Below are positions 14,005 through 42,268 of a DNA stretch of 64,000 nucleotides, one piece after another (position 1 is the first letter of the stretch; each line of letters starts with the position of its first letter). The stretch lies in IMG/VR virus record IMGVR_UViG_3300005253_000530. One strand, given 5' to 3'. The translations under genes and the position numbers were made by a program. Under the pieces are notes generated by a model. It was not told the DNA's origin, searched no databases, and saw only the letters and a program-made list of their open reading frames with translations. Source of the stretch: a virus. Its lineage: Duplodnaviria > Heunggongvirae > Uroviricota > Caudoviricetes.

Positions 14005-14404
14005 ATATTATAATATGTCTACCACGACCCCATCTTTTCCCTATAGGTCTCATACCTACCCGTAAATTATTCCTTATATTCGTGTGATTATCACTACCAA
14101 CAGCACCATATACAAATTCAGTAGTAGCCGCTTGAATGCCTTTTTCAAGTAGTTTTTTACCTAGTCCTCTTCTTCTATAATTAGGATGAACGCATAGGTG
14201 CTTGAGCTCAGTCGTAAGGCCATATTGCTCAAGCCCTATCACGCCCGTTATTATTTCTCCATCTAATTCTATTAGATATTTTACTGGACTAAGAAGTATT
14301 GAACTTTCGTTCAGTCGGGCCCATAGCTGATCTCCAGCATTGATCATATCTGCTATCTGTACAGCTATGTTCCTGGCACCGACTGTTAGTACAAATTTAC
14401 TCAT
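13952..14404 (-). CDS. GNAT family N-acetyltransferase
   Basis: Acetyl-CoA-binding motif LCVHPNYRRRGLGKKLLEKG. Confidence 0.75.
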   Translation of the reverse strand: MSKFVLTVGARNIAVQIADMINAGDQLWARLNESSILLSPVKYLIELDGEIITGVIGLEQYGLTTELKHLCVHPNYRRRGLGKKLLEKGIQAATTEFVYGAVGSDNHTNIRNNLRVGMRPIGKRWGRGRHIIIFARRKNGHRKSIHNRET

Positions 14405-14408
14405 TTAC

Positions 14409-15494: not shown

Positions 15495-15764
15495 GTTATT
15501 TCTCCTTATTTTAATAGGTTAAAATCCCTTTCTACTCCACTCCTCCTATTTAGCTACCACCGTGTCTATACTGACAGGCGCTGTGACAACCGCTGTTATC
15601 TCGTCTTTTGCTGGGTTTGCAGTCATGGTGACAAAAGACTGACTATTAGGAAAGCTATAGCGTGCCTCAATATACTCTGCTATAGCCTGCAAGATATTAT
15701 CGTTCGTCAAAGTAAATATAGATTTCTCTTTATTGCCTAATAGTTCCATGTTATTCCCCCCTTG

Positions 15765-17108: not shown

Positions 17109-17120
17109 ACGTCATCCCTC

Positions 17121-18944: not shown

Positions 18945-18946
18945 AT

Positions 18947-20188: not shown

Positions 20189-20200
20189 TTACTACCTCCA

Positions 20201-21130: not shown

Positions 21131-21143
21131 AAAAGTATTTCTC

Positions 21144-22772
21144 CTATACAGACAACATGCATCCAGTAGAATCCGACCAGATCATTTCGCCTTCTCTCAT
21201 TTTTGTATCTACAAATAATTCAATTTCCTCTTTACTGACTGTATCAGTAAGATCTTCGTCTTCTGATAAGCACTTTTGGACTTCTATTACCCATTCATCA
21301 CAGCTTACGCAGTCATCAATTAGTTTTAGATCGATTATTTCACTCAACTTCACTTCTAATATATCTGTACTCTTTATTTCAACAGCTAGATCCTCTTCTA
21401 TTTCTTTCCATGTTTTTCCATCCATTAAGTGTAAGGAAGCAGGACGTTCGGCTAACTTAATAAGAATATTGTATGCTGGGCCTATCTTCAGTAATATACT
21501 TTTCAATTGATTTACTAGATCAAGGCTTTCTTCTACAAAGTACTGCGTATTGTCCAACAAATGTCTAGTATCACTCATGCGACTACTATCGTTATAATCA
21601 CCGCAGCCATTCAGGATTGTTTCTTTCATAGCCTTAGCCTTCTTCAACCAAGCCTCATCCCCAACTTTCAATAATCCGTATCTGCTTATTTCGACCGCCT
21701 TTATAACAATAGCATAATGTAAACAAGCCAAAGCTGCATAATAGGTGGGACACATAGTTGAATCCGCCTGCCTGAATTCAATATGAAATCTATCTATATC
21801 TCCACCACTAAACCTGGTTTTGTTATAATTGATAAATCCATATTTGTTGCCACCAGCATGTCTAGATACATCTTCAATAACACGCCTCATATCCTTTGTA
21901 ACGGGCGATACATCAAGGATACCTACTCTAAATTTTTCCCAGCGAGTCATGTGTCTGGGGTCACCTAGGGCTATGGTCATCCATGTTAATGCATTCTGAT
22001 ATCTCCTGCATAACTGATGAAAATTTGCAAGAACTATTTGGGGCATAGGTTTTTCTAATTCATTGGCCCCATCACCCTCATAATAACTGGTTAATACGTG
22101 CATATGGGAACCAGTTCTTTCGTTTAAATATCCACCATATTTTTCTACTTTATCCAATATTCTTTTGGACATTGTATAGAATTCCCAGAAGTCTACACGC
22201 CGGCCAACGGTTATAATCTCTACGCCTTTGTCACCAAGTAGAGAACCATCTGTTGTTATACCGACAACACCAGATGGGCCTACCTTACCGTATGTTTTAC
22301 TAGGCTGCAACTCCGTATTCAAATTTTGCCTAATGTGCTTTGGGTCCTTATTTATGTTATACTTTTTAGAACAACTACCACAGTTCTTATCGAAATGATT
22401 ACATGTAAAACACGCACTAATAAAATCCACACAAGTACTACCTATGCATGAGAACTCATATTTATTGCATTTTTTACACTTGTCTGGCTTACATTTTCGG
22501 CTTTGTGCTATACATGTATCATAGCATTTTTCTTTTTGACAGACTGGTGTATTAGTACATTCTTTCCAGCAGCCATCGCCTATACGAGTACAAGGACATT
22601 GTATATTATCACCTTTACAGGATCCTTTTTGATCTGGTAAGTTGAATTCAAATTCAATTCCAACTTTCAACAGTTTCCGCATTGATTCTTTCCAATATCT
22701 AGCCTCTGCTGCACCTAGTGCTGGTTTAGACGGATGACTGTAGAACTGCCATTTCTCTCTGTTGTTCCTCAT
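21144..22772 (-). CDS. Cys-rich GS/GCS2-like amidoligase-family protein
   Basis: N-terminal LLKVGIEFEFNL (GxExE strand of carboxylate-amine ligases) followed by a Cys-rich insert (about 25 Cys). Confidence 0.45.
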   Translation of the reverse strand: MRNNREKWQFYSHPSKPALGAAEARYWKESMRKLLKVGIEFEFNLPDQKGSCKGDNIQCPCTRIGDGCWKECTNTPVCQKEKCYDTCIAQSRKCKPDKCKKCNKYEFSCIGSTCVDFISACFTCNHFDKNCGSCSKKYNINKDPKHIRQNLNTELQPSKTYGKVGPSGVVGITTDGSLLGDKGVEIITVGRRVDFWEFYTMSKRILDKVEKYGGYLNERTGSHMHVLTSYYEGDGANELEKPMPQIVLANFHQLCRRYQNALTWMTIALGDPRHMTRWEKFRVGILDVSPVTKDMRRVIEDVSRHAGGNKYGFINYNKTRFSGGDIDRFHIEFRQADSTMCPTYYAALACLHYAIVIKAVEISRYGLLKVGDEAWLKKAKAMKETILNGCGDYNDSSRMSDTRHLLDNTQYFVEESLDLVNQLKSILLKIGPAYNILIKLAERPASLHLMDGKTWKEIEEDLAVEIKSTDILEVKLSEIIDLKLIDDCVSCDEWVIEVQKCLSEDEDLTDTVSKEEIELFVDTKMREGEMIWSDSTGCMLSV

Positions 22773-23928
22773 TACCTAGCAACCTCCAATTCAACTCTAT
22801 ATTTTCATTAAACCTTGCTTTTTTATGAGCGTAATTCAATATGTAGTCAAAATAATTTATTATTTGTGTCTGGTTATCTTTGAATCCTATCATCATAGAC
22901 AGATCGTTTAGTATTGCATCTATGTGTGACATGGACTTATTCATTGTTTCTGAAACTACGCTGTCATGTACTACATTTTCATTCGGTAAATTAGGGTATA
23001 GTTGTCTAAGATCTTTGTAATCTCTAAACCATATCTTTTTCCTAAATCTATCAGAATGAGCACTTAATCTACTCAGTATATCTTTCATAACAACTATACT
23101 TATAGACAAAATGCCAGATGAAAGTATAGGGTGCCGTAATAAGTGGCCTCCTGGTACTCTATACTCTAATGTCATCATGTCATGCCTGAAATCTCCAGGT
23201 TTACCATAATGACTGAATCTCTTAGATCGTCGATAGAAATCCTCGTTACCTTCAGGTAATACAGCTGGTATTCCAACGTAGTAATCCAGGACACTTACTA
23301 TATTTCCAAGTAAGGCGTGCATGTTTTGTAACATAAATTGTGGTAGTCCAAAATGTATGTGGTATCCAGCAGATGCATTATTACAATGGGAAGAAGCTTC
23401 CATTCTTATGTCTTGTTTTCTAAATAATACTCTGTTACTAATATGCTCATGTGCTCTGGCCATTAGTTTATACAATTCCTCTGATACACCTTTTTCCTTT
23501 AAACTTGGCCGTGGTCTTATCTCTGCCAGGCCACAATCACTCCCAACTTCTCCATAATGAGGAAAAAAGTGGCTTGCTGATACATTGAATCCGGTAGTCT
23601 TATTCACCAGAAAAAATTCCGGGTCACACCCTATAAGTATATCATCGGCTGGTTTTATACTTGATATTAGATTTAGATCCAATAAATCATGTGTGTCTGT
23701 ATTTACATATACGCTTTCATTGTCTTCAAAGGCGTCAATTTCATAAGCTGTTGATACTTGTAGTGCTATTGGTTCTCCATCTTTGCCGTTTAGGCATAAA
23801 AAAAGTCCGGGCTCTAACCCGAACTCTTCTCTCAATTTTAGGGGTATTCGTATCAACCTATTTTCAATAGACCCCAACGGAGATGTATCTTTCCCCATAG
23901 ATGGAGATACTTTTATCTTGAACCTCAT
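22726..23928 (-). CDS. GCS2/GS-like carboxylate-amine ligase (amidoligase), paralog A
   Basis: IGCDPEFFLVNKTTG ... GSDCGLAEIRPRP ... AGYHIHFG. Confidence 0.6.
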   Translation of the reverse strand: MRFKIKVSPSMGKDTSPLGSIENRLIRIPLKLREEFGLEPGLFLCLNGKDGEPIALQVSTAYEIDAFEDNESVYVNTDTHDLLDLNLISSIKPADDILIGCDPEFFLVNKTTGFNVSASHFFPHYGEVGSDCGLAEIRPRPSLKEKGVSEELYKLMARAHEHISNRVLFRKQDIRMEASSHCNNASAGYHIHFGLPQFMLQNMHALLGNIVSVLDYYVGIPAVLPEGNEDFYRRSKRFSHYGKPGDFRHDMMTLEYRVPGGHLLRHPILSSGILSISIVVMKDILSRLSAHSDRFRKKIWFRDYKDLRQLYPNLPNENVVHDSVVSETMNKSMSHIDAILNDLSMMIGFKDNQTQIINYFDYILNYAHKKARFNENIELNWRLLGNEEQQREMAVLQSSV

Positions 23929-23940
23929 ATGTTTCCTCCG

Positions 23941-24606
23941 CTAATATTGGATATCGTCCTCCTCAAGCCCACGGGCCTCCCTAGCACCTTTGTATAATCT
24001 GAGCAATCTTTCCACTTTAGATGCTGATGTTTTTTTTGCTACGTTTTTCTTCCATGCTCCTAGATTCATTTTCTTTAATTCTTCTCTCTTCTTTTTATAA
24101 TACACCAATTTCTTTGCGTCTTCCTTTTTCAGCAGAAACATTATCAAACCCTTGCCGTTACCGTTACTAGAACCATTCTCCCATGGCTTGAGTCCATAAG
24201 GGATGCCTCTTATTAGAAAGGACTCTTTTTTTTCAGAAATCGATGCCATTTCACGTTTGCTTACGTGTGTTACGAATTTGCATATATACCTCGCTGCTAT
24301 TTGTTTGACTATTGGACCATAACCAGCGGCTGTATTTAACTTATGCCAGTGATTGTCCTTACATACATTGGTGCGTGGATACACTATGGACTTAGCTGTT
24401 TTTTTGATACAGTCAACGGCAGCAACATAAGTTCTTCCGCTATGGTGGGTGGTCACATAAAATTCTACTAAGCATGGATATGTATGTGGATAATAGCTCA
24501 AATATCTACCTAGCTCTTCTGGATTACGAACCCGTATATCGGTTTTATCCTGCATATAGCTTATAGCTTGTTGCTCGTAGGCAGGTGGATCACTTACAAT
24601 TATCAC
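23941..24606 (-). CDS. hypothetical protein, paralog of 60210..61115
   Basis: Shared block YP.L..V.T...G...A..C.K..K..VYP.TN.C with the 301-aa ORF at 60210..61115. Confidence 0.5.
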   Translation of the reverse strand: MIIVSDPPAYEQQAISYMQDKTDIRVRNPEELGRYLSYYPHTYPCLVEFYVTTHHSGRTYVAAVDCIKKTAKSIVYPRTNVCKDNHWHKLNTAAGYGPIVKQIAARYICKFVTHVSKREMASISEKKESFLIRGIPYGLKPWENGSSNGNGKGLIMFLLKKEDAKKLVYYKKKREELKKMNLGAWKKNVAKKTSASKVERLLRLYKGAREARGLEEDDIQY

Positions 24607-29147: not shown

Positions 29148-29510
29148 CTAACCCATTGGCGGCCTACCAGTCGGTGCCGTAGATGGGCCACCGCCTGTAC
29201 CCTTGGGTTTGAATCCGAACCCTACACTTAGAACTGTGAACACATGATGATTCTGGCCTTCTGCCGTCCAAGCTTCATACTGGCATTCAATCCACAGCTC
29301 TTGGCCTTCTACCACATACTGTTCGATCAAATCAGCTTTCTTATCAGATGCAAACATGGGCACATCCACCGGTTTATCCACCCATTGTCCGTTTGCGTCG
29401 GGTCGTTTTTTATTAACAACGAGGTGAAAGAACGCTTGCTTTTTACCATCAGGCGACGAAATTTGCAATCCCTTAACCTTTCCGATAAACATTGTTTTAC
29501 TATAATCCAT
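29148..29510 (-). CDS. ssb: single-stranded DNA-binding protein (OB-fold SSB)
   Basis: MFIGKVKGLQISSPDGKKQAFFHLVVN...WIECQYEAW pattern typical of bacterial/phage SSB; Gly-rich tail. Confidence 0.7.
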   Translation of the reverse strand: MDYSKTMFIGKVKGLQISSPDGKKQAFFHLVVNKKRPDANGQWVDKPVDVPMFASDKKADLIEQYVVEGQELWIECQYEAWTAEGQNHHVFTVLSVGFGFKPKGTGGGPSTAPTGRPPMG

Positions 29511-29512: not shown

Positions 29513-32500
29513 TTAGTCTCCTTTAATTAGAATTTTGTCTATGTATGCTGCCAACTCTTCGTATGCGGCTCGCATGTTTTCAGTTGTCAGCACATTACGA
29601 ACTTTTATTTTCTTAGCCTTGATCCTATCTAATACATCCTCTACATCTTCTCTTTTCGACTTCAAGATTCTGAACAGCATGAAGCTGGGAAGATCCAACG
29701 GTGCAGATCGTAAATGGTCCAAGAGATTAAACGGGCCTAACAACGCCCTACTTGCGAAATATATCTTATTTTTCCTCCTTACAATGAAATTGATTATCTT
29801 GCTTCCTCTTCCTTCTTTTGCGGCTTGGTGAAAACTGACCAAATCCCATATCCTTAGACTGGCAGCCTCTAGAAGTATCAAATCGCATAGCAATTGGCTT
29901 GCCTCCCTGTCGAAACCCAGCCCAACCATCTTTTCTGTATCTGCGACACATATAGCATCTGTTGCCTCTTCCTGTAGAGATTTGATACCATGTTTTTGCC
30001 TAAAAACAGTATTACCAAGAAAATCCAGTAGGACTTCTAGATGTACATGACTTTCTGCTTCCGTATAAGGGACACAGCGCTCAACTATCCGCATTAGATT
30101 ATAAGCCAATGCAATTACCGGTCCAGTATGACTTTTTACACCAGTAGCTTTCCTTACAAGCTCCGCATGCTCCTCGTTAGTAGGTTTAGGAAATTTACAT
30201 ATCTGAAAATCGTCCAAAGTCATTTCCCTATGCTTAGGAACTTTCTTTGCATTCATACTCTCAATGATCCTATTACATAGATCGTTTGGTTCTCTCATCT
30301 CTTTGCGTAGTAATTCAATAGACGCAGGGTTATGAAAGGACGCTATAAATAGGCTGTCACCATCAAAATCAAGATTTTCAGAAGTAAGACTGTTTCCACT
30401 AACCCTTATGACATATTTACACTGTGGATCATTTGTGACTCTTACATATTGAGGACGTATGGACATGAATCCAAGACAAGGAAATCTTTCCACTAATACC
30501 ACATCCCCCGTCTTCACCTTTAGTGCTCGTGCCATATCACTATGAATTTCTATTGTATTTTTGGGCAAATTATCCACAACACAATGCTTCAGTTCAGTAG
30601 GATAGTCGTCCTCGTTGTCGGCTAGGGCAGCAGTTGCTCTACTGGAATAAGGATATCTTACTGCCATACCATATGTGCTTAGCTCCCCGTTCTTTCCACC
30701 CATCATCCTGGATACATTCTGAAAGTATCTTGTAACAGCTCTCATCAGTTCATTCTGATCATTTACATCTCCTGTTTCTATAAATTTATGAGAAGCTATT
30801 ACTATATGATTGACATATAGCCCAACGGTATTCAGTCCCCATTTACCAGACGGATGACGCCAGCACCTTCGAGATAGAGCATTGGGTATAAATATTGTAT
30901 TATAAATATACTCTATCTTCTGGCCCGGATCTAATATTTCTTGTGGTAGACCCATTGTATATGATTCTACATCTTCTTTGTCCACGATAGCCTGAAAGTA
31001 ACTTGGTATACGCAGTATAAATCCTTCTGGCATATATTCGTCATCAACTATAGTACCTTTGATATTAGCCAAATCGTGAAATATACCCTGGGTTGTATCC
31101 ACGCATGCCACATCTTTGGCATCAATTACTGGAATGCCAGCATCTATTTCACCCTTAGCAGACCTGAGAATGTCTATTCCGTCCTGCAACATGGATACTC
31201 CCTGCGAATAGGACATTATTTCTTCCAGCAGTGGGTTACCTTGGCCGAATCTGGTAGTCAGAGCCTTCATCTCTACATGACTGAACTTTAGCCCAGATGT
31301 CCTCAGTTCTCTGTTATTGGTTAGCTCTGTCCTATCTTCTTCCCACAACTGATCTTCCGGGTCCTTAGTTACTCCCCAAAACATCTTCCCCACTATTGCC
31401 TGAGATTCTCCAAAATATGTATCGATCATCGAAGTTCCATCTTTTGGGAATCCTTTGGATTCTAACGCTGCTTCAAGTTTAGATTTTTCCACCAAAATAT
31501 CATCTTTGACCACGATAGGAACATTTCCCTCATTTAAGTTATTTGCGAGAGCCTCAAGAATTTGACCAAAGTTCTTACGCTTATTGATAGATGTGCCAGA
31601 CATCATTACATCTATTTGCACTTCTTCACCGGTTCTTGGATCCACTTGATGCCCCAGGTCCATAAAGCGTATAATGCCTTTATTACCATGTAAATTAGAG
31701 AATTTACTACCATCCCTTAGAAATCTCTTCCCCTTCACAGTTACCACTACGAGCTTTATTTGTTCGCCATTCAGATCAGTTACAGTTCTGTTTACCTTTG
31801 TTATCTTTGCCTCATCACAACGCATATCCATCATAACTGGCTGACCATCTTTTGAAAATCCAAGCACATCCCCAGTTCTTACCTCTTTACCAGCCTTTGC
31901 AAGTATGTGATCACCATAGATGGCAAATCTCTTTGTTACTGTGTGTGATAACCCTCTGTGCCGGTTGTCTGCAAGAATTTGATCCTCGAAGTTTAGAACT
32001 GTATCGATAATAGCAGTTACCATGTTCCAGCCTTTTCTATCGATGCCTTTCTCAACCAGCTTTTGTATGGACTCAGACCTGATATTTGGTAACTCGTCGC
32101 CTTTCATCCCAAGAGTAGAATATAGATTTCTCTGGGGATTATGGTATTGTCCAAACGGAGTTATATCTCGTAGATCTGTGGTCATTAGATAGTTTTTATC
32201 AGACAACACACCGTCAGATAATCCTATAGCTGTCCACCCAAATTTACCGTAATATCTTTTGTTCTTGTCGACCTGGTACTCCAGTTTCTCGTTGGGATCA
32301 GATATATACTCGAAAACTGGGTCTATAATAATAAGCCGATGATTCATCGCCCAGCTATTCATATCTGTCTCATGTAGTGGCATAATGTTTATAACACTGT
32401 TTAACAGCCTCTGAGTCTCACTCACCATATACACCACTCGATCCCTGTCAAAGGACTTTACGATCTTGTGTACCATCGGACTACCACTCATTTGCGACGG

Positions 32501-33004
32501 TATAATTACATTTACATCTTCACAAAGTAGGCTTTCAACGATTTGATGAAAATTCATCTTTTTCTGCTCCCGCTCCAACCAGAAATCACACAATACTCTA
32601 ACGACATCGTTGTTCTTCAGAAATTCTATACCGTTCTTGCCTACCGTTGGAAGCGGTATTTGTAGACATTTTTCCACATCCTCTCGACTAAACTTAATCC
32701 ACAGAACATAATCAATTACTTCGGTAGTCATGATTATGCCGGCTTTAGTTATACTATTTATACGGTTAAATTCGGCTGCGATGTTGACCAGTAATAGGTC
32801 TGTACGTCTATCGAGAGTTTCCTGATCACAAATCTCCCTCTTTGCATGAGAGAGGAAAGCTTCATGCCGAGCAATCTCCTCCTTTAGCTGTATAACTCTC
32901 TCAAGCCTTTTTATTTCATTGTTTAACTTCTGAACACGGATATCCTTCTCGAGCTGGGATATCTCTGTATTCAGCGCCTTCATCATTTCTGTGTTATTAC
33001 TCAT
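29513..33004 (-). CDS. single-polypeptide two-barrel (multisubunit-type) DNA-dependent RNA polymerase, beta-like N-half + beta'-like C-half
   Basis: beta DPBB motifs RDGSKFSNLHGNKGII...NFGQILEA (cf. RpoB GRHGNKGV...NIGQILE); beta' motifs RFPCLGFMSIRPQYVRV...ENLDFDGDSLFIASFHNPASIELL (cf. RpoC NADFDGDQMAVHVPL); DFDGD encoded at about 30355..30378. Confidence 0.8.
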   Translation of the reverse strand: MSNNTEMMKALNTEISQLEKDIRVQKLNNEIKRLERVIQLKEEIARHEAFLSHAKREICDQETLDRRTDLLLVNIAAEFNRINSITKAGIIMTTEVIDYVLWIKFSREDVEKCLQIPLPTVGKNGIEFLKNNDVVRVLCDFWLEREQKKMNFHQIVESLLCEDVNVIIPSQMSGSPMVHKIVKSFDRDRVVYMVSETQRLLNSVINIMPLHETDMNSWAMNHRLIIIDPVFEYISDPNEKLEYQVDKNKRYYGKFGWTAIGLSDGVLSDKNYLMTTDLRDITPFGQYHNPQRNLYSTLGMKGDELPNIRSESIQKLVEKGIDRKGWNMVTAIIDTVLNFEDQILADNRHRGLSHTVTKRFAIYGDHILAKAGKEVRTGDVLGFSKDGQPVMMDMRCDEAKITKVNRTVTDLNGEQIKLVVVTVKGKRFLRDGSKFSNLHGNKGIIRFMDLGHQVDPRTGEEVQIDVMMSGTSINKRKNFGQILEALANNLNEGNVPIVVKDDILVEKSKLEAALESKGFPKDGTSMIDTYFGESQAIVGKMFWGVTKDPEDQLWEEDRTELTNNRELRTSGLKFSHVEMKALTTRFGQGNPLLEEIMSYSQGVSMLQDGIDILRSAKGEIDAGIPVIDAKDVACVDTTQGIFHDLANIKGTIVDDEYMPEGFILRIPSYFQAIVDKEDVESYTMGLPQEILDPGQKIEYIYNTIFIPNALSRRCWRHPSGKWGLNTVGLYVNHIVIASHKFIETGDVNDQNELMRAVTRYFQNVSRMMGGKNGELSTYGMAVRYPYSSRATAALADNEDDYPTELKHCVVDNLPKNTIEIHSDMARALKVKTGDVVLVERFPCLGFMSIRPQYVRVTNDPQCKYVIRVSGNSLTSENLDFDGDSLFIASFHNPASIELLRKEMREPNDLCNRIIESMNAKKVPKHREMTLDDFQICKFPKPTNEEHAELVRKATGVKSHTGPVIALAYNLMRIVERCVPYTEAESHVHLEVLLDFLGNTVFRQKHGIKSLQEEATDAICVADTEKMVGLGFDREASQLLCDLILLEAASLRIWDLVSFHQAAKEGRGSKIINFIVRRKNKIYFASRALLGPFNLLDHLRSAPLDLPSFMLFRILKSKREDVEDVLDRIKAKKIKVRNVLTTENMRAAYEELAAYIDKILIKGD

Positions 33005-33013: not shown

Positions 33014-34114
33014 CTATTTATGTTTTTCCTGTTTGAGCAACTTCTCTTCAAAAACTCGGGCAAGAGCCGCACTACTGGTGATTCCCTCCTTTCTTATAAA
33101 ACATATTCGGTCACACATGCTTACTAAATTGGAATTACTCATTGGTAAGAATCTTTTAATTTTTGCCAGTTTGGTATATGTATCGCCAGGGGTAAATATA
33201 GCTCTGAGTATTATAGAAAAGACAACATCAAATCTCCATGTGTAATCTAGCTTTACAATATCCCATCTACTATGTTCCCATACATCTCTAAATGAATCTG
33301 AAAAGCCCTTATTTATATTGTTAATTATATTATCATCTGAGCGATTTATGTGCATAAAAGACAATGTTTGAAATTCTCTTATTGTATCTATCAATCTTTT
33401 TTTGCTTCCGCTACTTAAATCTCTTCTGGATGGTAGATGTATAAAAGTACCAATCGGTGACTCTTTTATCTTAAACATTGGCAATAAGCCTACATAAAGT
33501 TTATTAGCTCTATCTTTTATAGTGCTATTAGCATCTGGGCTGGATACATGAGTAGCTAAGTTTGGCAATTCAAATATATGAGCATTTAGACATGGTGTCA
33601 TGGATCTAATCCATGCTTTTAGATCTGTTTGACCTATGTATTTTTTGTGTCCAGAGTGTATACTGGCTAATCCTATATGACCTACAGGTATTTTTACAAA
33701 AGTTTTTGCAGTTGTTTTACCAGATTTATTAGAAATTCTACTCCATAAGCCGTCAGCTCCATCTATATATGGTATATTGACTACATTACTTCCTGATACA
33801 AAATAGCCACACACAGTTAAAGGTATAATGTGTTTATTATATAAATAGAACTTTTTAGTCATTCCTGTAGTAAGTATTTTCTGTCGTAGATGGATATTCA
33901 TACCAAGATCTATAATTAGTTTTTTCCTTTCACATCTGGAGGGCTCTGTTGATTTGTCGGACTTATAGCTAGAGAATATGGCGTCTAACAAAATAAATCG
34001 GTCTGCATAGAATAGATACATATTATTCAAGTACCCAATATCACCCACGGAAGGATGATGCCTTTTGGAAGCAGAGCTTTCTGTTATAACTATCTTCTGA
34101 CCTCTGTAGAACAT
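33014..34114 (-). CDS. hypothetical protein downstream of RNAP
   Basis: 366-aa ORF; weak N-terminal similarity to next ORF. Confidence 0.5.
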   Translation of the reverse strand: MFYRGQKIVITESSASKRHHPSVGDIGYLNNMYLFYADRFILLDAIFSSYKSDKSTEPSRCERKKLIIDLGMNIHLRQKILTTGMTKKFYLYNKHIIPLTVCGYFVSGSNVVNIPYIDGADGLWSRISNKSGKTTAKTFVKIPVGHIGLASIHSGHKKYIGQTDLKAWIRSMTPCLNAHIFELPNLATHVSSPDANSTIKDRANKLYVGLLPMFKIKESPIGTFIHLPSRRDLSSGSKKRLIDTIREFQTLSFMHINRSDDNIINNINKGFSDSFRDVWEHSRWDIVKLDYTWRFDVVFSIILRAIFTPGDTYTKLAKIKRFLPMSNSNLVSMCDRICFIRKEGITSSAALARVFEEKLLKQEKHK

Positions 34115-34134
34115 AGGAATTATCCCTCCTGTAT

Positions 34135-35076
34135 TTATTCAGGGTATCTTTTATACTGATATCCCATTTTTTTCTTAGTAAATACTTTCTTACCTGATTT
34201 TAAGGCTTCTTGCTGTCTTGGACTTACCGGCAAAGAGCCAGATGGATTATCTTTGTACTCTTCTTCTCCCTCCTGTACAGATTTTAGATCGTTCTTCTTT
34301 TTTCTATAGTATGACAACACATCATTAATATGAATTTCTATATCTTTATACACTCGTACTGCATGTGATTTATAGTTTGCATCTCTGTCTTTCACTATAA
34401 CCATAGACATTATTATTTTATCCAGACACTCTTTGCGTATTGCTTGGTTATTAAACAAACTAAGATATGAATCTTCAAAAGACTTGTTTTTATTTTCTAC
34501 ATCATACTCCAGACCTCTTATAACACAGTATCCCATATATTCTGGACTCATAAGTCTTGGATCTTTATGTTCAATAAAGTCAGCTGCTCCTAGTAATAAA
34601 GGCATAGATACTAACTGATGTGATATCTTACCATGCCGTAATCTATTTAGATATAATGATAAGGCGGTAAAATAGCCAAGAAAATCCCAGGTGTCTATAT
34701 CTAACAAATTTTTACACTCTATATCAGTTGGTATTATTATAGATGCGCCAATTTCTTGTGTATCTATGGGCTCAAATCTATGTGCCCTACGTTTGTTAGA
34801 GTTTGGTCGAGGAAGTAATCCCTCAACAACTTGCACAGTGTCAAGAATTCCTCTATCTGATTCCTTTAATTGATCACTAGTAAACATTCGTGTAGAAAAC
34901 CCTAACACGCTTATTCTTCTTTTACCTTTTTTACCATATCTTGTGAATACAGATACCATTTGCCATGCATTATAGTTAAGTATAGAGTCCTGGCATACAA
35001 AATATCCTACAGAGCCAGCTTTGCATTGCCGGTTACTTTTCACAACCTCTATTTTTTGAGTTGGTCTTAATATCAT
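34135..35076 (-). CDS. hypothetical protein downstream of RNAP
   Basis: 313-aa ORF. Confidence 0.5.
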   Translation of the reverse strand: MILRPTQKIEVVKSNRQCKAGSVGYFVCQDSILNYNAWQMVSVFTRYGKKGKRRISVLGFSTRMFTSDQLKESDRGILDTVQVVEGLLPRPNSNKRRAHRFEPIDTQEIGASIIIPTDIECKNLLDIDTWDFLGYFTALSLYLNRLRHGKISHQLVSMPLLLGAADFIEHKDPRLMSPEYMGYCVIRGLEYDVENKNKSFEDSYLSLFNNQAIRKECLDKIIMSMVIVKDRDANYKSHAVRVYKDIEIHINDVLSYYRKKKNDLKSVQEGEEEYKDNPSGSLPVSPRQQEALKSGKKVFTKKKMGYQYKRYPE

Positions 35077-35358
35077 GTGTACACTATTCCTCCTCTTCTT
35101 CTGCCGCCACTTCTGGTGGATCTATCGAATTGTATTGTAAATAACTACCAAGTTCTGCTTGATCGGGTCTCACTTCTGGCTCCTCAGCCTCAATAGGCGC
35201 TCGTCCCATCTCTGTAGTATCAATACTAACTAGATCACCATCTGCATCCACTGAAACTACAGCATTCTGTTGTATTGAGTTTGTTGTAAATGCAGCATTT
35301 TGTAGTGTGTTCATTACAAGCGGATTACTACTATCTACATAGTTAAGACCGGTCTCAC

Positions 35359-36372
35359 CTAGGAAACTGTTGTTGTACTTAGATCATAAGATGTAGCTTC
35401 GACAGTAGGAATATGCAAGGAGCCAGCTCCTGATCTTAACTGGTTTTCTATTTGTTCAAGTGCCCATCTAAAATTATCAATGTTGAATACCAACATTCTA
35501 GAATATAGCTCTCTTCCATTGACGAATGTAAAGTTTACGCCTGTATCACTGTGTTCATCTGGTTTAACAAGTATATAGCTGGGTAAATCATTCATAACTA
35601 ACACAGAATAATAGGCTAAGTCTCCTGGGTTAATACGTTTTTTGAATTTTATACTACCGCCGACTACTTCATCAAGGTGTACTTTTATAAATCTAGTATT
35701 ATGGGAATACCATATGCGCATGTTCTGTAATTTCTGCACAATCGACGCTATCTCAGTTGATATAAGTTCTGTACTTTCTTGTTCCTTTTCTAAGTGCTGT
35801 CTCTTTACTACACTAGAAAGTATTATTAGTTCTATGAATTTATCAGGGACATCCTCACCATACTTTTCAACTATTCTTTGTAATTCTTGGCCGCTTAAAC
35901 CCTGTTGACACCTAGCCCATACATTTATGGATTTAACAGGCCATTTAGATATATCCGGCATTCTGGTGTTAACCTTTACTATGTCCATCTGTGACATAAA
36001 TTTTTCACTTGTCGATATTACTGCTCCATATATGTTTATGCCTAATACTTTTGTAGGAAATTTTTTGGTTAACAATATATCTTTTACATCGTTTATATTA
36101 AAGGTAACCTCTTTTCTACCTAATAAGCTAATCTTATTGTTATTGGTTCTGGAGATAGTATATTGAGTACTATCTACACAAGCTGCAAATAACCATACTC
36201 GCTTATCAGGCTGTCTAATAGATATTATCATAGATACTAATGGCATAAGTCCAGAAAGTTCGTTGTTATTATATGCTTTAATATTAGAATTTATGAAGAA
36301 TACGTCTCCAAGCTTGGCTTCTATTGCATCAGAAGCTGATCCTTGGGTTATACTAACAGTTGGTCGTTTCAT
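35359..36372 (-). CDS. hypothetical protein
   Basis: 337-aa ORF. Confidence 0.5.
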   Translation of the reverse strand: MKRPTVSITQGSASDAIEAKLGDVFFINSNIKAYNNNELSGLMPLVSMIISIRQPDKRVWLFAACVDSTQYTISRTNNNKISLLGRKEVTFNINDVKDILLTKKFPTKVLGINIYGAVISTSEKFMSQMDIVKVNTRMPDISKWPVKSINVWARCQQGLSGQELQRIVEKYGEDVPDKFIELIILSSVVKRQHLEKEQESTELISTEIASIVQKLQNMRIWYSHNTRFIKVHLDEVVGGSIKFKKRINPGDLAYYSVLVMNDLPSYILVKPDEHSDTGVNFTFVNGRELYSRMLVFNIDNFRWALEQIENQLRSGAGSLHIPTVEATSYDLSTTTVS

Positions 36373-36691
36373 GTTGTCTTCCTAATAATATAATCATTAT
36401 CATCCTCACATTTAAGACATTTATGATTACCCATGTATGACATATATCTTACAATGGGTGATATAAATATTTTCTGTGTGGTATCACCATAGTCTGATGT
36501 AGCTATTACAAATCTTTTATTATAGCAATCACTGGTTACTGAATTCATAGGCATACTGCCTGATGTAAATACCTTTCTACCGGCATCTGGGCTATTCATT
36601 ATTGCTCTACATTCCTCATTATTTATAAAACCTATCAATCTACCAGTCAATAATGGCTTGCTATTTTTCCATACTTTTACTCTGAGCATGT

Positions 36692-37171
36692 TTAGTCCTC
36701 ATACACATCTTTTTGTACTATGGTTTCGCCGGTTTTCTCAACCACCAAGGCTAAATCCATTTCTTCACCCATTATTACCGCAAAATCATCTATTGAAATA
36801 CCTTCGTCTGAATCTAGTGCTTTTTCTATGGAATCCGTTACTTCCTGTATATCATTGCATGGTTCCATAATTATAGAATTGCCTACATCATTCATAAGTA
36901 ACCATAACCGATTATCCTGCAGACTGCTGGCTGGGATTTTTACTGGTAATGCAAGAGGATCTAATACCCACCCATATATCAATATTACAGTACTGATATC
37001 ATCATGAGGGCCTATTAGGCATTCATCACTACATAGATATTTATCCAAATCGTTTTTCCACGATGATCCAATTATGATGTCGTTGATTTTAACTATGTAG
37101 ATACACTTATCTACTTTCTCATTAATTTCTTTTATTGTGTCCACTAAGCTATTACTAACTACCATTATCAA
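36692..37171 (-). CDS. hypothetical protein, distant paralog of 37712..38215
   Basis: Shared C-terminal block I(D/E)DFAV(I/L)(M/I)G. Confidence 0.45.
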   Translation of the reverse strand: MIMVVSNSLVDTIKEINEKVDKCIYIVKINDIIIGSSWKNDLDKYLCSDECLIGPHDDISTVILIYGWVLDPLALPVKIPASSLQDNRLWLLMNDVGNSIIMEPCNDIQEVTDSIEKALDSDEGISIDDFAVIMGEEMDLALVVEKTGETIVQKDVYED

Positions 37172-37709
37172 TTTCCTCCATTCTGTTTTCTTTGTAAAGC
37201 ATAAGAAACATATTGAACATTATTATGAATGCGGGAGAATAATTTTGTTCATTTTTTTCTACATCTGTGATAAGATCTTTAAGTGAGCAAGTTATTAATT
37301 CCTCTACTTCATCACATGATATTCTTACATCTTCTTTTTCCGGGTCTAATAGGTAGGTATATAATGCCACAAATTCATTACCAGTTTCTTCTGAAGGAGA
37401 CACTTTAGCTATATTAATAAGATCTGTTTTGTCTATATCTATACCTAACTCTTCTTTTGCCTCTCGTACTACAGCCTCTTGATACTTTTCTACTAAGCGG
37501 ACATGTCCAGAAACAGCTGAACTCCATTTCCCGCCGTTTTCTGTATGAGGAGCTTTTTTCTGTATAATAATTTTGCCGCCAAAAACTTCAATAATTAAAT
37601 GTATAGATCTGTGTAGCTTTCCTCCTCTGTGTAATTGTTCTTTATCTTTAACTGCATACATAAAATTATCATTGCCGTCAACTACGGCAAAAGATTCTTC
37701 ATGTATCAT
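37155..37709 (-). CDS. NUDIX hydrolase
   Basis: Nudix box SGHVRLVEKYQEAVVREAKEELGI (Gx5Ex7REUxEExGU). Confidence 0.75.
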   Translation of the reverse strand: MIHEESFAVVDGNDNFMYAVKDKEQLHRGGKLHRSIHLIIEVFGGKIIIQKKAPHTENGGKWSSAVSGHVRLVEKYQEAVVREAKEELGIDIDKTDLINIAKVSPSEETGNEFVALYTYLLDPEKEDVRISCDEVEELITCSLKDLITDVEKNEQNYSPAFIIMFNMFLMLYKENRMEEIDNGS

Positions 37710-37711: not shown

Positions 37712-38215
37712 TTATTCTCCTTTGTTTTCCATTCTTTCTAATCTTTTTTCTTCTATTTTATTTATAATCCTTGTTTTAATAATACCACTTAATCCAATAC
37801 CTATTAAAACGGCAAAATCTTCTATTTCCATATATGTGTGTGTAGCCATTGCAGCTTCTATATAATCTGTAGCTTCATGCATATATCCAAACTTACTTAC
37901 ACCAAACTCGTCATTCAGTACAAACACACTGGCTGATAGCGGCGGAGTAAACGGTAAATCAGCTGGGTCTGCTATTAGTACACGCATCACTGTCATATGT
38001 TCTGGATTTATTGGTTTGTCAAATATACGAAAATAATCAGAGTAAAATACAATATCTGATAGACAATCACATCCCACTATAGTCATATCTGTATTGTCAT
38101 TTGCTATCATTATACATGGTCTTTTGCCATGATGGGCATTTAATTCAGATATACTCATCATGACATTAACTACTGCAGTTTGTACAGTAATAGGAATTTT
38201 TTGTATCGTCGTCAT
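37712..38215 (-). CDS. hypothetical protein
   Basis: 167-aa ORF. Confidence 0.45.
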   Translation of the reverse strand: MTTIQKIPITVQTAVVNVMMSISELNAHHGKRPCIMIANDNTDMTIVGCDCLSDIVFYSDYFRIFDKPINPEHMTVMRVLIADPADLPFTPPLSASVFVLNDEFGVSKFGYMHEATDYIEAAMATHTYMEIEDFAVLIGIGLSGIIKTRIINKIEEKRLERMENKGE

Positions 38216-38217: not shown

Positions 38218-39015
38218 TTATTCCCCTGTTTTCTTTTCGACTAAAATCTTGTCTTCCTCGTACTTAATTCTTTTCTGAAAATTACTGGACACATCCGTGA
38301 TTAATGCTGATTGGATTTTCTTGAGTTCTCCCAATAGAACCTGCACATTATCAAACTGACCATCAGCGTGCAGCTTATTGTAGATATTCAGTACAAGAGT
38401 AGACGGCTCGATGTTATCGCGATCAGAAGCATATATAGCTCTTGATGTAGCTTCTACTTGATCGCAGAGCATCAGAATTAATGATTCCAAGGAATCTGGC
38501 CTACCAGTTTTATATCTAAACGCATTAATATTAGCTTTAGGGTCTTTAGACTTTGCTTTCTCAAATATAGATTGTACTGGACAGGTTCCATGGTGCTGGC
38601 TTACGATTCTTATTACATCATCAGGAAAACCATTTGCTACTAGAATAGTGACGGTGTCAGACACATGTCTTGTGATAAGCACGTAACTAACCCATGGTGG
38701 TAAGCCATCATGTATATTGTCTTTGCCTTGATTTTCTGTATATGATTCCGGAAACCACATTTTGCCAATATCATGGTATAGAGCGGACATTTGCAATTTA
38801 TGTGGATCTTTATCTACAGCTGCACAAACATTTTCTACTGAACCCATCAGAGATTGGTCATGTTTATGACTTCCCGGAGCTTTCTCTCGAAACTCTTTCA
38901 ATAAGTGAAATTTAGAATCCATAGGCCCAATTTTCTTGTCTTCTTTATCCTCATACACTTCTTGATCTGCTTCTACCATGGGACTTCCTCCTGCTATATC
39001 TTTGTACAAAGTCAT
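38218..39015 (-). CDS. HD-domain metal-dependent phosphohydrolase
   Basis: HD motif LYHDIGKMW and downstream His/Asp residues. Confidence 0.65.
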   Translation of the reverse strand: MTLYKDIAGGSPMVEADQEVYEDKEDKKIGPMDSKFHLLKEFREKAPGSHKHDQSLMGSVENVCAAVDKDPHKLQMSALYHDIGKMWFPESYTENQGKDNIHDGLPPWVSYVLITRHVSDTVTILVANGFPDDVIRIVSQHHGTCPVQSIFEKAKSKDPKANINAFRYKTGRPDSLESLILMLCDQVEATSRAIYASDRDNIEPSTLVLNIYNKLHADGQFDNVQVLLGELKKIQSALITDVSSNFQKRIKYEEDKILVEKKTGE

Positions 39016-39664
39016 GCATATCCATTTTTATGAAATCTTTTACCATAGTTAAATAATGTAGCCTAGCAGTAGAATTTATTGTCATAAACTCTGGGTGGTA
39101 TTGAACTCCCATCGAGTTGATTTTAGGGAATATTGCTGCCTCCACCTCTTCATCTGGTGGATTCTTTCTAGTACCTTTTGGGCCTATATATGCCGCAGAT
39201 CTTCTCGGCTCTGCCCAAGCTACAATTTCTGCATCTTTTCGTAGCTTCACTAGTTGGTGATGGGTACTTGTCACATCCATAAAAGAATCCATGTGGCTTA
39301 CATACACACCATGTTGTCTAGCTATACTATGATTGGTTATATGTTGATACATAGATCCACCAGCCATAACATTCAGGAATTGAAAACCACGGCATACACC
39401 AGTCATTTTTATATCATACTTTCTACAATAATCAAATATTTTTTTTTCGTACATATCACGTTTGAAATTCGTCATACATATTTTTCTTGGATCTTTCCCA
39501 TTGTAAAAATAGGGATGTATGTCCTCACCACCAGTAAATAATGCAAGCGATATTTTTTCTGGCGTCTTAATGAGTTTATCTACGCTCTTTGTAACGGATC
39601 CAACTTTATTGAGTAAATGTTTGTAAAGAGGATCTCCTCCAACTATTAGAATTTTATCCTTCAC
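38951..39664 (-). CDS. class-I glutamine amidotransferase-like / peptidase C26 (gamma-glutamyl hydrolase, PuuD-like)
   Basis: Catalytic Cys motif MTGVCRGFQFLNV and C-terminal His region GVQYHPE. Confidence 0.65.
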   Translation of the reverse strand: MKDKILIVGGDPLYKHLLNKVGSVTKSVDKLIKTPEKISLALFTGGEDIHPYFYNGKDPRKICMTNFKRDMYEKKIFDYCRKYDIKMTGVCRGFQFLNVMAGGSMYQHITNHSIARQHGVYVSHMDSFMDVTSTHHQLVKLRKDAEIVAWAEPRRSAAYIGPKGTRKNPPDEEVEAAIFPKINSMGVQYHPEFMTINSTARLHYLTMVKDFIKMDMHDFVQRYSRRKSHGRSRSRSV

Positions 39665-40754
39665 TTGTGATCTCCTTTTGCTTTGATGCTCTTTTATATT
39701 TTATTATTGATCTGCTTTTTAGGAATTTTGTTACATACATTCGGGATGTGGTATCTTCAGCAGCCATTATTGCCTTTATTATATCAGGATCTAATGCCTC
39801 ATATATGTTTATATTAGCATGTATGGCAGATATTTTACCAATAATAGATGAGCACAAGAAACTACTTGTGCATTGATGTGCTAAATTTTTATCGTGTTTC
39901 TTTGGGTTTGTTGCAAATCGTTGTAAACCTATCATCCAGCTTATATCAGTAGTAGCAGCTTCAATATTAGATAGCTTAGTCTTTGTTTTTTTGTACCTAC
40001 CAGTTTTTGGATTTATCAGTCGTGGAACTTCATTGTACTTTCTAAACACAGTTATAGTGTGGTGTTCAGTAGTACTAATAGCTATACGGCTCGCAAATAC
40101 ATAGGCAGCATAAAAGTTCATCTTACATTTATCAGTGAGGTATATCGCAACTCTAACAAGCCCAGGATCTTCCCTTAAAACTCTTAACATTGATAGGTAT
40201 AGATATAATTGAGCTTGAGTTAAATCTGTGAGATCCAATACTGCAGTACCCTTTCCAACTGCGTTGTGTTCATTATAAGAATAATTGCCATTACCCAGTT
40301 TAATAGGAAATTCAAACATTTCTATCAAATTTTCATCTATATAATCCGGTAGCATTTTATGCTCTTCAGCAAGCTGTATCCATCTGATACATTCTTCCAT
40401 ACTCAGCAGAATATTAGCACCAGGATTATAGTATTTTCGCTTTTTACTATAAGGCTCCTTAAGATAAATAGTATAAAATATTCGATTATATTTATCGCTT
40501 TGTTTGTATAATTTGCCTAATAACCCTGCAAAACACGCATGATTAGTGTTTTTCCAGATGTCCTTTGTATTTGAATCAATGTCATGTATATCATCTGGCA
40601 GCCTATCATCATGGAACAAGCCATATTCTGTATAGTTGATCCCAGGTGCATAGCTCATGTTTACTATATCTCTATCTATCCATGGTTTTTGCCTATGAAT
40701 GGATGGCAGTGTTTTTTTTACGCTATTGTCAGATCGTTCGTTGGCTGTTCGCAT
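39654..40754 (-). CDS. hypothetical protein
   Basis: 366-aa ORF. Confidence 0.5.
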   Translation of the reverse strand: MRTANERSDNSVKKTLPSIHRQKPWIDRDIVNMSYAPGINYTEYGLFHDDRLPDDIHDIDSNTKDIWKNTNHACFAGLLGKLYKQSDKYNRIFYTIYLKEPYSKKRKYYNPGANILLSMEECIRWIQLAEEHKMLPDYIDENLIEMFEFPIKLGNGNYSYNEHNAVGKGTAVLDLTDLTQAQLYLYLSMLRVLREDPGLVRVAIYLTDKCKMNFYAAYVFASRIAISTTEHHTITVFRKYNEVPRLINPKTGRYKKTKTKLSNIEAATTDISWMIGLQRFATNPKKHDKNLAHQCTSSFLCSSIIGKISAIHANINIYEALDPDIIKAIMAAEDTTSRMYVTKFLKSRSIIKYKRASKQKEITSEG

Positions 40755-41041
40755 GCGTTTTCTTTTTTCTCCTTTTCCGCAACTTCTATAAACATCAATT
40801 CGGTCATTCGGATTGCAGGTATGAGCTTGAATACAACATCTTTGCTAGTTGAATTATCTTCAATTCTGATAATATAATGTGATTCATCTCTTTGATTTAT
40901 ACCTTGATACCCATCCCTTTTAAAATAGATGTCTGTTACCACTAAGTCTTCCATACCAACAGGAGTTTTTCCAACTTCATAGGTAAAATCATTAGCTATT
41001 AAACATACAATTTTTTTCATAGTATTAATACCCCCTTTGTT

Positions 41042-42268
41042 TTAGTACAATTCTTTCAAAAGACTTGCTTGAAATTTCATAAAATCCTTATTATCCTTTA
41101 GCTTTTGATATGATCCCATTACCATGCCGCGGCTTGACCGAAAGTCGTTGTTTACACACCATTCCTTTTTTAGATCTTTATCAATTACACTATATACACC
41201 GTTTTCACGCATGTATTCAAATGAAGCCAATGAATGTACAATTTGACCTTCTGGGCCTTGTGGCGGATTTTCCCACGGCGAATGCCCTTCCTCTACGTAA
41301 CTTTGTATAGATCCTCTTAAAGATCCTATATGTAAAGGGTTACATGAAGACAGCCCTGTAGATGCAAGGTAGGGTCGCAGATTTTTCCATATTTTATCCG
41401 CTGTGATAATATCGCTCTCATCGATAACTCCACGAATAGTTTCTTCATCGAATCCTACGGCTTCTCTATAAGTTTCGTCCATGTTAATAGTCACCATTGA
41501 CCATGCCATTCTTGCCAATCCATATACTAATGATACGAACATTGGCGATTTTAGCCACCAGCAACTGGGAGTTCTGTACTCTATGCCATAAGGAGTCGGT
41601 CTAAAACATCCGGCTTTACCATATTTTGATCTTCTCAGTTTAGATCCATTGTCGTTATCAAGGCGCATTGTAGGTATGGTAAGTAGTAAATCCAAGAATC
41701 GTATAAGCCGAATATGCCCGTCTTCTGTTTTTGCAAGCTTGTACTCCGGCTGATCCTTCGATAGATACGGTGAAGACAATCCAAGGTGTATGTGACCACC
41801 GGCGTATCTATGTGGATGCTCAGAGGCGTCCATTTCTGGAGTGTTTGTGGTACATGTATAAGCATTGAAATCTGGTTCGCATCCAAATACACGTGCTTCT
41901 GGATCAGCTTTGTTTATAACTGACTCGCGGATTTTTTCAGCTGGAGAAAGAATAATTTGATGATTCTTTGGTATTCTATTATAAACTTCTCTCCATACCT
42001 TTTCGATATTACCTGCGAAGTATTCTCTACACGACTGATGAGCTACAGCCATCTCGGCCTGTATACCATCGAAAAACAGTCTGCTAAGTTTACCGTCCCT
42101 GGCTTGTACTTTTATAGGATCATTTTTGCTGGGGAAGAAATTATCAGCACTTCGCACCCGGCCTTTCTCATCACCTATAAAAAACTCTGGGTCTCCACCT
42201 ATCCTGGGTAAATAATTGACTTTGTATATTCTGCGTCCTATTTCCTTATCTATCTCCGAAATCTTCAT
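41042..42268 (-). CDS. GCS2/GS-like carboxylate-amine ligase (amidoligase), paralog C
   Basis: IGGDPEFFIGDEKG ... RYAGGHIHLG. Confidence 0.6.
   Translation of the reverse strand: MKISEIDKEIGRRIYKVNYLPRIGGDPEFFIGDEKGRVRSADNFFPSKNDPIKVQARDGKLSRLFFDGIQAEMAVAHQSCREYFAGNIEKVWREVYNRIPKNHQIILSPAEKIRESVINKADPEARVFGCEPDFNAYTCTTNTPEMDASEHPHRYAGGHIHLGLSSPYLSKDQPEYKLAKTEDGHIRLIRFLDLLLTIPTMRLDNDNGSKLRRSKYGKAGCFRPTPYGIEYRTPSCWWLKSPMFVSLVYGLARMAWSMVTINMDETYREAVGFDEETIRGVIDESDIITADKIWKNLRPYLASTGLSSCNPLHIGSLRGSIQSYVEEGHSPWENPPQGPEGQIVHSLASFEYMRENGVYSVIDKDLKKEWCVNNDFRSSRGMVMGSYQKLKDNKDFMKFQASLLKELY

Follow-up and report, generated by a model that had tools for sequence, protein, structure and literature searches.

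The subject of this report is a 64,000-nucleotide stretch of viral DNA (Caudoviricetes; IMG/VR record IMGVR_UViG_3300005253_000530; hereafter 'the window') and, within it, one long open reading frame (ORF) that very probably encodes a catalytic RNA polymerase in which beta-like and beta'-like halves are fused. The gene occupies positions 29513..33004 on the minus strand, to which all window coordinates given below also refer; an AGGAG Shine-Dalgarno sequence lies 6 nt 5' of its ATG start codon, and its product is a protein of 1163 residues (132 kDa, isoelectric point (pI) 6.1). A prior inspection of the letters alone (the 'sequence-only reading') had assigned an RpoB-type motif block to the N-terminal half of this protein and an RpoC-type block to its C-terminal half, and that assignment is borne out. 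All of the motif strings quoted at the time are present (RDGSKFSNLHGNKGII at residues 430-445, NFGQILEA at 478-485, RFPCLGFMSIRPQYVRV at 840-856 and LDFDGDSLFIASFHNPASIELL at 878-899), and one Pfam model for each half matches the protein above its cut-off: RNA_pol_Rpb2_6 over residues 397-533 (E 4.5e-11, 42.9 bits against a cut-off of 23.4) and RNA_pol_Rpb1_2 over residues 796-885 (E 3.2e-6, 27.9 bits against 25.3).

The same two models match 41 of 41 and 39 of 41 aligned homologues, respectively. In a local alignment, residues 426-484 pair with residues 1057-1114 of E. coli beta at z = 12 over shuffled sequences. Because the Pfam scores exceed their cut-offs, the homologues match as well and the likeness to E. 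coli beta is of this size, the motifs are not chance matches. A comparison of the barrel region with E. coli beta 1047-1120, using hhalign, gives a probability of 86%, and a search of PDB sequences with the family profile returns a bacterial beta subunit as its top match (E 1.6e-7). The order of the motifs is colinear with E. coli beta residues 645-674, 797-821 and 1057-1114, followed by beta' residues 330-353 and 458-475. Across 41 sequences, the invariant positions include D879/D881/G882/D883, K434, N441/K442/G443, E340/D341/Q342 and R840/P842; each of the 21 full-length cluster representatives, the most distant at 33% identity, retains the DxDGD motif and both lysines. The protein thus carries the two features by which the two-barrel superfamily is recognized, namely a beta'-type barrel with a DxDxD/DxDGD triad and a second, beta-type barrel with two conserved basic residues. 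It does so in a chain far shorter than a full-length beta-beta' fusion, as had been pointed out at the outset: E. coli beta and beta' together comprise 2749 residues, of which 1163 is 42%.

The beta-like half (approximately residues 90-600; 31205..32737) is preceded by an N-terminal coiled-coil extension (residues 1-86; 32747..33004), with helices predicted at lower confidence at 4-54 and 61-86, that is confined to the subclade of the window; alignments of more distant homologues begin at query residues 87-114. Within this half, MPLHETD (208-214) resembles IPFLEHD of E. coli beta (z 2.9), NFEDQIL (338-344) resembles NFEDSIL of beta (E813/D814; z 2.4) and supplies the 'FED' motif (E340, D341), and a further motif, SGLKFSHVEMKAL, lies at 570-582. 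An alternative assignment of the beta fork loop to HNPQRNLYS, made by eye, was discarded (local alignment z 0.2), the MPLHETD/IPFLEHD pair being the better match. The core of the beta-type double-psi beta-barrel, as located by the Pfam RNA_pol_Rpb2_6 match, the profile against PDB sequences and hhalign, corresponds to 31406..31816. It contains, at 31670..31717 in RDGSKFSNLHGNKGII, the catalytic lysines K434 and K442, which are like K1065 and K1073 of E. coli beta; in six representatives the HG of the HGNKG motif is replaced by AA or SA. Between NFEDQIL and the lysine motif, a short insert predicted to be entirely of beta structure (residues 354-428; 31721..31945) may be a reduced flap-like SBHM domain, what remains of the beta flap, for which no flap-tip helix is predicted. 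This assignment, like those of the clamp-helix, bridge-helix and trigger-loop counterparts described below, draws on predicted secondary structure and colinearity.

Between the last of the beta motifs and the barrel of the beta'-like half (approximately residues 700-1163; 29516..30907) lie only about 200 residues. The beta'-like half opens with RRCWRH (712-717) and a helical hairpin (726-768) that appears to take the place of the beta' clamp helices, followed by VRYPYSSRA (782-790), which resembles RVDYSGRS of beta', and ERFPCLGF (839-846), which resembles NRAPTLH. The beta'-type double-psi beta-barrel (residues 796-885; 30350..30619) was identified by the Pfam RNA_pol_Rpb1_2 model, and includes the motif DFDGD (879-883; 30356..30370), whose invariant aspartates D879, D881 and D883 form the Mg2+-binding triad; its context is NLDFDGD, as compared with NADFDGD in the cellular enzymes (z 2.7). 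Beyond the barrel, the C-terminal 280 residues belong to the same chain as both barrels. They include a 35-residue helix in the structure model (943-977; 30074..30178) that holds the invariant GVKSHTGPVIALAYNLMR (invariant columns 954-972) and is a candidate bridge helix, and then a helical hairpin (983-1019; 29948..30058; model helices 983-1005 and 1011-1019) that is a candidate trigger loop, with invariant Q1003-K1004-H1005-G1006 at its tip. The QKHG sequence is kept in 16 of 21 distant representatives. Neither local alignment nor hhalign gave a sequence-level match of the protein to regions F and G of E. coli beta'.

The structure model of the complete chain is confident (predicted local distance difference test (pLDDT) 85.8, predicted template-modelling score 0.79). 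Among its structure matches, beta'/Rpb1-type chains stood in the second rank, with about 400 residues aligned (RPA1, 14.0; rpo147, 12.8; Sulfolobus A', 12.6; M. tuberculosis beta', 11.4), and the known single-chain two-barrel enzymes were placed lower (QDE-1, 13.3; P74-26 gp62, 10.1; P23-45 gp96, 9.6); crAss gp66 (6VR4) lay outside the top 60. Sequence, profile and predicted structure thus concur in two barrels within one chain, with conserved active-site residues. Two outcomes had been named in advance as fatal to that proposal, namely motif blocks that fall off the two barrels in a structure model or profile searches that find no RNA polymerase; both were looked for, and neither occurred. 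The best viral structure match (BFVD entry A0A172Q0S6; Foldseek E 5e-17, TM 0.35/0.48, 12% identity over 827 aligned columns) is a 798-residue uncharacterized protein (locus L023) of Acinetobacter phage vB_AbaM_ME3, a cultured 235-kb jumbo phage. It is probably itself a single-chain two-barrel polymerase, still annotated as hypothetical, and the kinship of ME3 to phage 0305phi8-36 suggests a link to YonO-like enzymes (PMC7824862).

A word-indexed search returned 382 homologues of the polymerase, nearly all of 1000-1200 residues and named nothing but 'hypothetical protein', such that the family is wholly unannotated in public data. An exhaustive search of 1.84 billion representatives gave 101 matches. 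Because the scores drop to weak, barrel-only matches after roughly 30 full-length clusters (at 50% identity, with members down to 33% identity), the family is discrete. In 50,697 GenBank phage records, tblastn and megablast found no relative at E 1e-5, and only chance matches at E 10. Thirteen IMG/VR viral contigs, the longest of 298 kb, do bear members of the family, as do contigs of 270 kb (ERZ23499028 scaffold_58, 88% identical), 189 kb and as much as 327 kb. These viral contigs, their size and the gene content of the window identify the carrier as an uncultured jumbo phage with a genome of more than 200 kb. That gene content, on one strand throughout, includes seven tRNAs, two CCA-adding-type enzymes, RlaP, RuvB, a helicase, NUDIX, HD and SLT genes, three phiEco32-type COOH-NH2 ligases, GATases, a methyltransferase and an endonuclease. 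The sole hint as to the host is the presence of strong AAGGAGG ribosome-binding sites. Only five matches were found in 185,579 species genomes, all on short contigs of metagenome-assembled genomes (MAGs) from unrelated phyla; these contigs (L026-L030, 16-39 kb), binned to Arcobacteraceae, Woesearchaeota, Stahlbacteria, Patescibacteria and Altiarchaeales, are almost certainly mis-binned phage contamination.

Several further observations were made in the course of these searches. In a 45%-identical relative (L002), a TnpB/Cas12f-like gene (OrfB_IS605 plus Cas12f1-like_TNB; 5662..6726 of that locus, minus strand) is inserted 3 kb 5' of the polymerase gene and in the opposite orientation. Larger one-chain beta-beta' fusions are also present in metagenomes (P0208, P0217, P0219 and P0220, of 1403-2296 residues; loci L024 and L025); their Pfam matches are strong and run from Rpb2_6/Rpb2_7 to Rpb1_1/2/3/5, and the neighbours of P0219 are TPR, response-regulator, sigma-54-activator and cell-wall hydrolase genes. 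Another protein, P0213 (1413 residues), in which Pfam detects only the beta barrel, is encoded near a Cas_APE2256 gene.

The sequence-only reading had described the three ORFs at 33014..36372 as lying downstream of the polymerase and had offered them as specificity or accessory factors. Since the gene is on the minus strand, they are in fact upstream (5'), and the gene that truly follows is an SSB-like OB-fold ORF of 120 residues (29148..29510; PHROG 44, E 3.3e-4; Pfam SSB 21.3 bits, below the cut-off of 26), where SSB denotes single-stranded DNA-binding protein. This ORF starts 2 nt past the polymerase stop codon, its Shine-Dalgarno sequence lies inside the 3' end of the polymerase gene, and an SSB-like gene is found in the same place, 3' of the polymerase gene, in 15 loci. 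Immediately upstream, ORF A (33014..34114; 366 residues, pI 9.8) ends 9 nt before the polymerase start codon (3-58 nt in most loci), and has an N-terminal beta domain and a C-terminal helical domain. It is fast-evolving, being 65% identical in a relative whose polymerase is 88% identical. ORF B (34135..35076; 313 residues, pI 9.3), 5' of A in a conserved position, is a paralogue of A over its N-terminal 140-175 residues or so (hhalign probability 95.9%, E 6.5e-9). Farther upstream lie ORF D (36369..36689; 106 residues, pI 9.3), a small ORF conserved in 14 loci and in the MAG loci, and ORF F (37712..38215; 167 residues), which is the first member of the conserved block.

Conservation of these neighbours was assessed by iterative profile searches over 23 loci, and the same-strand order that emerged is F (about 170 residues), D (about 110-145), B (about 230-320), A (about 260-366), polymerase, and the SSB-like gene (about 120). 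Of the 21 loci whose upstream sequence is long enough, 13 have detectable copies of all of F, D, B and A, and four more have part of this set. As candidate accessory factors, A and B therefore hold up as far as their wide conservation goes; ORF C (35359..36372; 337 residues) does not, as it lies outside the conserved block and is found by iterative profile search only in the window and the close relatives L001 and L003. None of the libraries scanned names ORF A, B, C, D or F, and to call A a specificity factor is a guess. Between B and C lies an acidic ORF of 76 residues (35084..35314; pI 4.05), separated from C by 44 nt; in the 88%-identical relative L001 the two correspond to one 430-residue protein, so that the window has either a genuine gene split or a difference caused by a frameshift or by assembly. 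ORF E (36692..37171) is an acidic paralogue of the likewise acidic ORF F (27% identity, E 8e-6), with a NUDIX gene (37155..37709) between the two; in most relatives there is only one copy.

Other gene groups of the window lie farther from the polymerase. A large cluster of genes for peptide or metabolite amidoligases (13952..24606 and 38951..42268) is kept around the polymerase gene in the distant relatives L002, L005 and L007; it comprises the phiEco32-type COOH-NH2 ligases (15765..17108, 22726..23928 and 41042..42268), two GATase_6 proteins (17121..18944 and 20201..21130), a Peptidase_C26/GATase (38951..39664), a RimK-type ATP-grasp protein (14409..15494) and a GNAT protein (13952..14404). 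A GGACT gene is located at 61882..62316. An RNA-repair or tRNA kit, at 397..3731, 9423..10790, 52313..53200 and 54822..56192, consists of the seven tRNAs (Thr, Leu, Phe, two Pro and two Glu), two HD-domain enzymes of the CCA-adding/poly(A)-polymerase type and the RlaP nucleotidyltransferase. At 5263..6950, a DNA methyltransferase (PHROG 67, E 2.5e-53) adjoins an endonuclease (PHROG 4645, E 9.6e-59); together they may serve the phage for restriction-modification or DNA modification.

The phage also encodes a sigma factor. A sigma-70-family protein of 287 residues (10741..11604), located about 18 kb further along the polymerase strand, was identified with PHROG 351 (E 1e-15), Pfam Sigma70_r2 (30.5 bits; cut-off 24) and TIGR02937 (48.8 bits; cut-off 42.9). 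Its homologues occur on contigs equal in size to eight that bear the polymerase (21403, 27500, 34675, 38448, 51856, 66414, 91997 and 189212 bp), and the coincidence of these eight sizes indicates that the two genes travel together. Jumbo phages have been described as having either a split polymerase and no sigma factor, or a sigma factor and no polymerase (PMC7598289, PMC13282480); the lineage described here, with both its own polymerase and its own sigma factor, is an exception to that reported dichotomy. The presence of the phage sigma factor also means that the question of sigma independence, raised in the sequence-only reading, concerns two polymerases, that of the host and that of the phage.

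Taken as a whole, these observations point to a polymerase derived from a cellular-type multisubunit enzyme, in which beta and then beta' would have been fused and more than half of the mass lost. The beta-like half would supply the first barrel, with K434 and K442, together with the FED motif, and the beta'-like half the second barrel, with the Mg2+-binding aspartates. That the product is a genuine catalytic two-barrel polymerase is, on the strength of its motifs and its model, very probable; that it is an active, single-chain, DNA-dependent RNA polymerase of the non-virion kind, made after infection and devoted to middle or late genes, is a further step that seems probable. A non-virion role is suggested by the setting of the gene, which is non-structural (the SSB-like ORF, helicase, NUDIX, HD, RuvB and amidoligase genes are nearby), in that it sits among genes of replication and nucleotide metabolism and not among virion genes. 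In such a scheme, the enzyme would transcribe middle or late phage genes independently of the host polymerase, which, perhaps redirected by the phage sigma factor, would transcribe the remainder. Promoter specificity would probably be conferred by a partner, for which the leading candidates are the basic paralogues A and B, and then the translationally coupled SSB-like protein.

A number of results weigh against this interpretation. At the level of sequence, the beta' half is visible at its barrel only, and neither hmmsearch nor hhalign against E. coli beta' gives anything more. The search for a non-sigma70 promoter, which had been put forward as a check, yielded no candidate motif in the window: k-mer enrichment over 32 intergenic regions recovered only the Shine-Dalgarno sequence AAGGAGG and a sigma-70-like -10 box, AGTATAAT (four of six copies intergenic), a scan for consensus promoters and terminators found 71 as against 80.5 expected from shuffled sequence, and three candidate promoter words, when inspected, had no shared context. 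The proposed partners are no easier to pin down. Profile searches do not detect A and B (or D and F) in the divergent subclade L015-L018, whose loci have ORFs comparable in size and placement; the rate of evolution of A and B is far above that of the polymerase; and ORF A has no recognizable fold, its model (pLDDT 83.4) having matched only generic helical bundles and no sigma factor, gp68/gp226 or polymerase subunit. Adjacency is weak evidence of a functional link, because gene order is kept throughout the region, with the helicase and ligase genes as well. Finally, packaging of the enzyme in the virion is possible, as the window covers 64 kb of a genome that exceeds 200 kb.

The same neighbours allow a somewhat different account, in which the chain is the catalytic core only and A and B (perhaps also D and F) are stable subunits that replace modules it has lost (the clamp, the lobes, and an assembly platform like the alpha dimer or Rpb3/Rpb11), without which it would be inactive or non-specific. 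The tight spacing of A and the polymerase and the F-D-B-A-polymerase order, complete in 13 of 21 loci and partial in four, speak for it, as do the paralogy of A and B, which cellular platform subunits share, their basic character, and the need of the non-virion polymerases of AR9 and phiKZ for a fifth, non-sigma-like subunit in initiation (PMC7598289). This account, which is compatible with the interpretation of an active post-infection enzyme, is possible though doubtful. Less likely is a self-contained minimal core that uses the sigma factor at 10741..11604, which would bind the retained hairpin at the position of the beta' clamp helices; in a variant, A and B would form a heterodimeric initiation factor of a new type. 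If true, the sigma-dependent arrangement would give a holoenzyme smaller than any other known of that kind, and the first case of a phage-encoded polymerase that works with a true sigma factor.

The enzyme might instead serve DNA replication, by making RNA primers or opening an origin on SSB-coated single-stranded DNA. There is precedent in the action of the host polymerase at the origins of filamentous phages and of T7 polymerase at its primary origin. The polymerase gene is translationally coupled to the SSB-like gene, its 3' neighbour in 15 loci; RuvB and a superfamily-2 helicase are encoded close by, and a scan of the window ORFs (all but some small ones) turned up neither a DnaG-type nor an archaeo-eukaryotic primase; in addition, the AR9 non-virion polymerase starts specifically on single-stranded DNA (PMC7598289). 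A primase may nevertheless sit elsewhere, in the part of the genome beyond the window, and no cellular-type two-barrel polymerase is known as a dedicated primase. The SSB-like neighbour also fits a transcription cofactor, SSBs being used in the transcription of phage N4, and a replicative role is altogether improbable. So, to a greater degree, is membership of a known single-chain two-barrel family, be it YonO-like, crAss gp66-like, QDE-1-like (RNA-dependent) or of the P23-45 gp64/gp96 type. That possibility is already largely refuted: an hhalign comparison of the family profile with YonO gives a probability of 0.07%, the tblastn relatives of YonO fall in 40 phage records (zero for the polymerase family, so that none is shared), and the traits of the crAss gp66 type (a very large, virion-packaged protein encoded in the structural module, with a QDE-1-like core) are not those of the phage chain. 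The slimmest chance attaches to an inactive relic, or a two-barrel enzyme of other chemistry such as a PolD-like DNA polymerase, to which the high divergence of the family and the six representatives with AA or SA for HG in HGNKG lend some colour.

The significance of an active, post-infection RNA polymerase of this kind would lie in its size. The cellular transcription core is about 400 kDa, which hampers its dissection and engineering, and the phage protein is a naturally reduced, single-gene version of 132 kDa whose active site is, by sequence and predicted structure, of the cellular type; it is much closer to the cellular enzyme than are YonO, crAss gp66 or QDE-1. If active, it would make the nucleotide-addition cycle of cellular-type polymerases accessible in a minimal, tractable model, add a data point on the limits to which beta and beta' can be pared down and fused, and provide a compact orthogonal transcription module. 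Because two-barrel polymerases of non-canonical types are already known to be diverse, it is no conceptual surprise; its attraction is that of a minimal model enzyme and of an exception to the rule that a jumbo phage has either a sigma factor or a polymerase of its own.

Set beside known systems, the proteins described here are an unannotated phage family of compact, cellular-type beta-beta' fusions with no studied member. The likeness to cellular beta and beta' extends beyond the DxDxD motif, and the evidence places the family in clade 1 of a published classification, that of the cellular-type multisubunit polymerases and their fused derivatives (PMC10770324). YonO of SPbeta, which transcribes late phage genes, is likewise a phage-encoded, single-chain, two-barrel DNA-dependent RNA polymerase, of about 100 kDa (PMC5467207), and crAss phi14:2 gp66 and P23-45 gp96/gp64 are also single-chain two-barrel enzymes, with a DFDGD or DFDxD motif; all of these differ from the phage polymerase in clade. 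YonO is described as very distant from the cellular enzymes, whereas the phage polymerase matches cellular Pfam models in both halves. Enzymes of the YonO and RNA-dependent RNA polymerase (RdRP) types are reported to be without the SBHM flap insert (PMC7824862).

Among the larger enzymes, the non-virion polymerases of phiKZ and AR9 divide both beta and beta' among at least two polypeptides each (four or five genes), with a fifth subunit (gp68 or gp226) that recognizes promoters, in phages described as having no sigma homologue (PMC7598289, PMC13282480); in contrast, the polymerase described here is fused in one uninterrupted ORF throughout its family, and its phage encodes a sigma-70-family protein. 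The PHROG models of the phiKZ/AR9 subunits match it weakly (E about 1e-5), and membership of that type was rejected on the grounds of the single ORF and of an ORF A model unlike gp68/gp226. Nor is the carrier an mReC phage as defined by Weinheimer and Aylward, for which separate beta and beta' proteins of at least 800 residues each, with NADxDGD, are the criteria (PMC7481178), the family having one chain with NLDFDGD.

With bacterial RpoB and RpoC the phage protein shares its domain order (beta and then beta', as in the rpoBC operon) and the motifs NFED, K...HGNKG, NFGQILE, R.P.L and N.DFDGD. Natural full-length RpoB-RpoC fusions exist in Helicobacter and Wolbachia. Most lineage inserts, by comparison, are absent from the phage chain, and its size and limited aligned length imply that most of the clamp, jaw and secondary-channel elements are absent as well. 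It was rejected as an RpoB/RpoC orthologue, full-length fusions included, since it scores about 30 bits against NCBIfam rpoB equivalog cut-offs of at least 800 (28.6 bits for TIGR02013, cut-off 801; 35.6 bits for TIGR03670, cut-off 811) and has only 42% of the combined length.

The closest counterpart in architecture, as judged from its published description only, is K2ORF6p (with K2ORF7p) of the Kluyveromyces lactis plasmid pGKL2. That protein, of about 974 residues, has beta and then beta' regions in one chain, with shortened spacers and a beta' clamp that is largely lost; it groups with the cellular-type multisubunit polymerases and not with the YonO/RdRP group, and its beta-beta' fusion was called 'not known to be present in any other' polymerase (PMC6211774). 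The traits of this yeast virus-like element, namely a beta-then-beta' fusion, a chain of about 1000 residues and a reduced clamp, are found again in the phage polymerase. The yeast plasmid enzyme is eukaryotic and cytoplasmic, with a proposed common origin with the poxvirus polymerases; it has its beta' C-terminal regions in a separate subunit of 132 residues, and a capping enzyme and a helicase as partners (no capping enzyme was seen in the window). The phage polymerase, by contrast, retains the post-barrel regions, with the candidate bridge helix and trigger loop, in its single chain, and is carried by a tailed jumbo phage.

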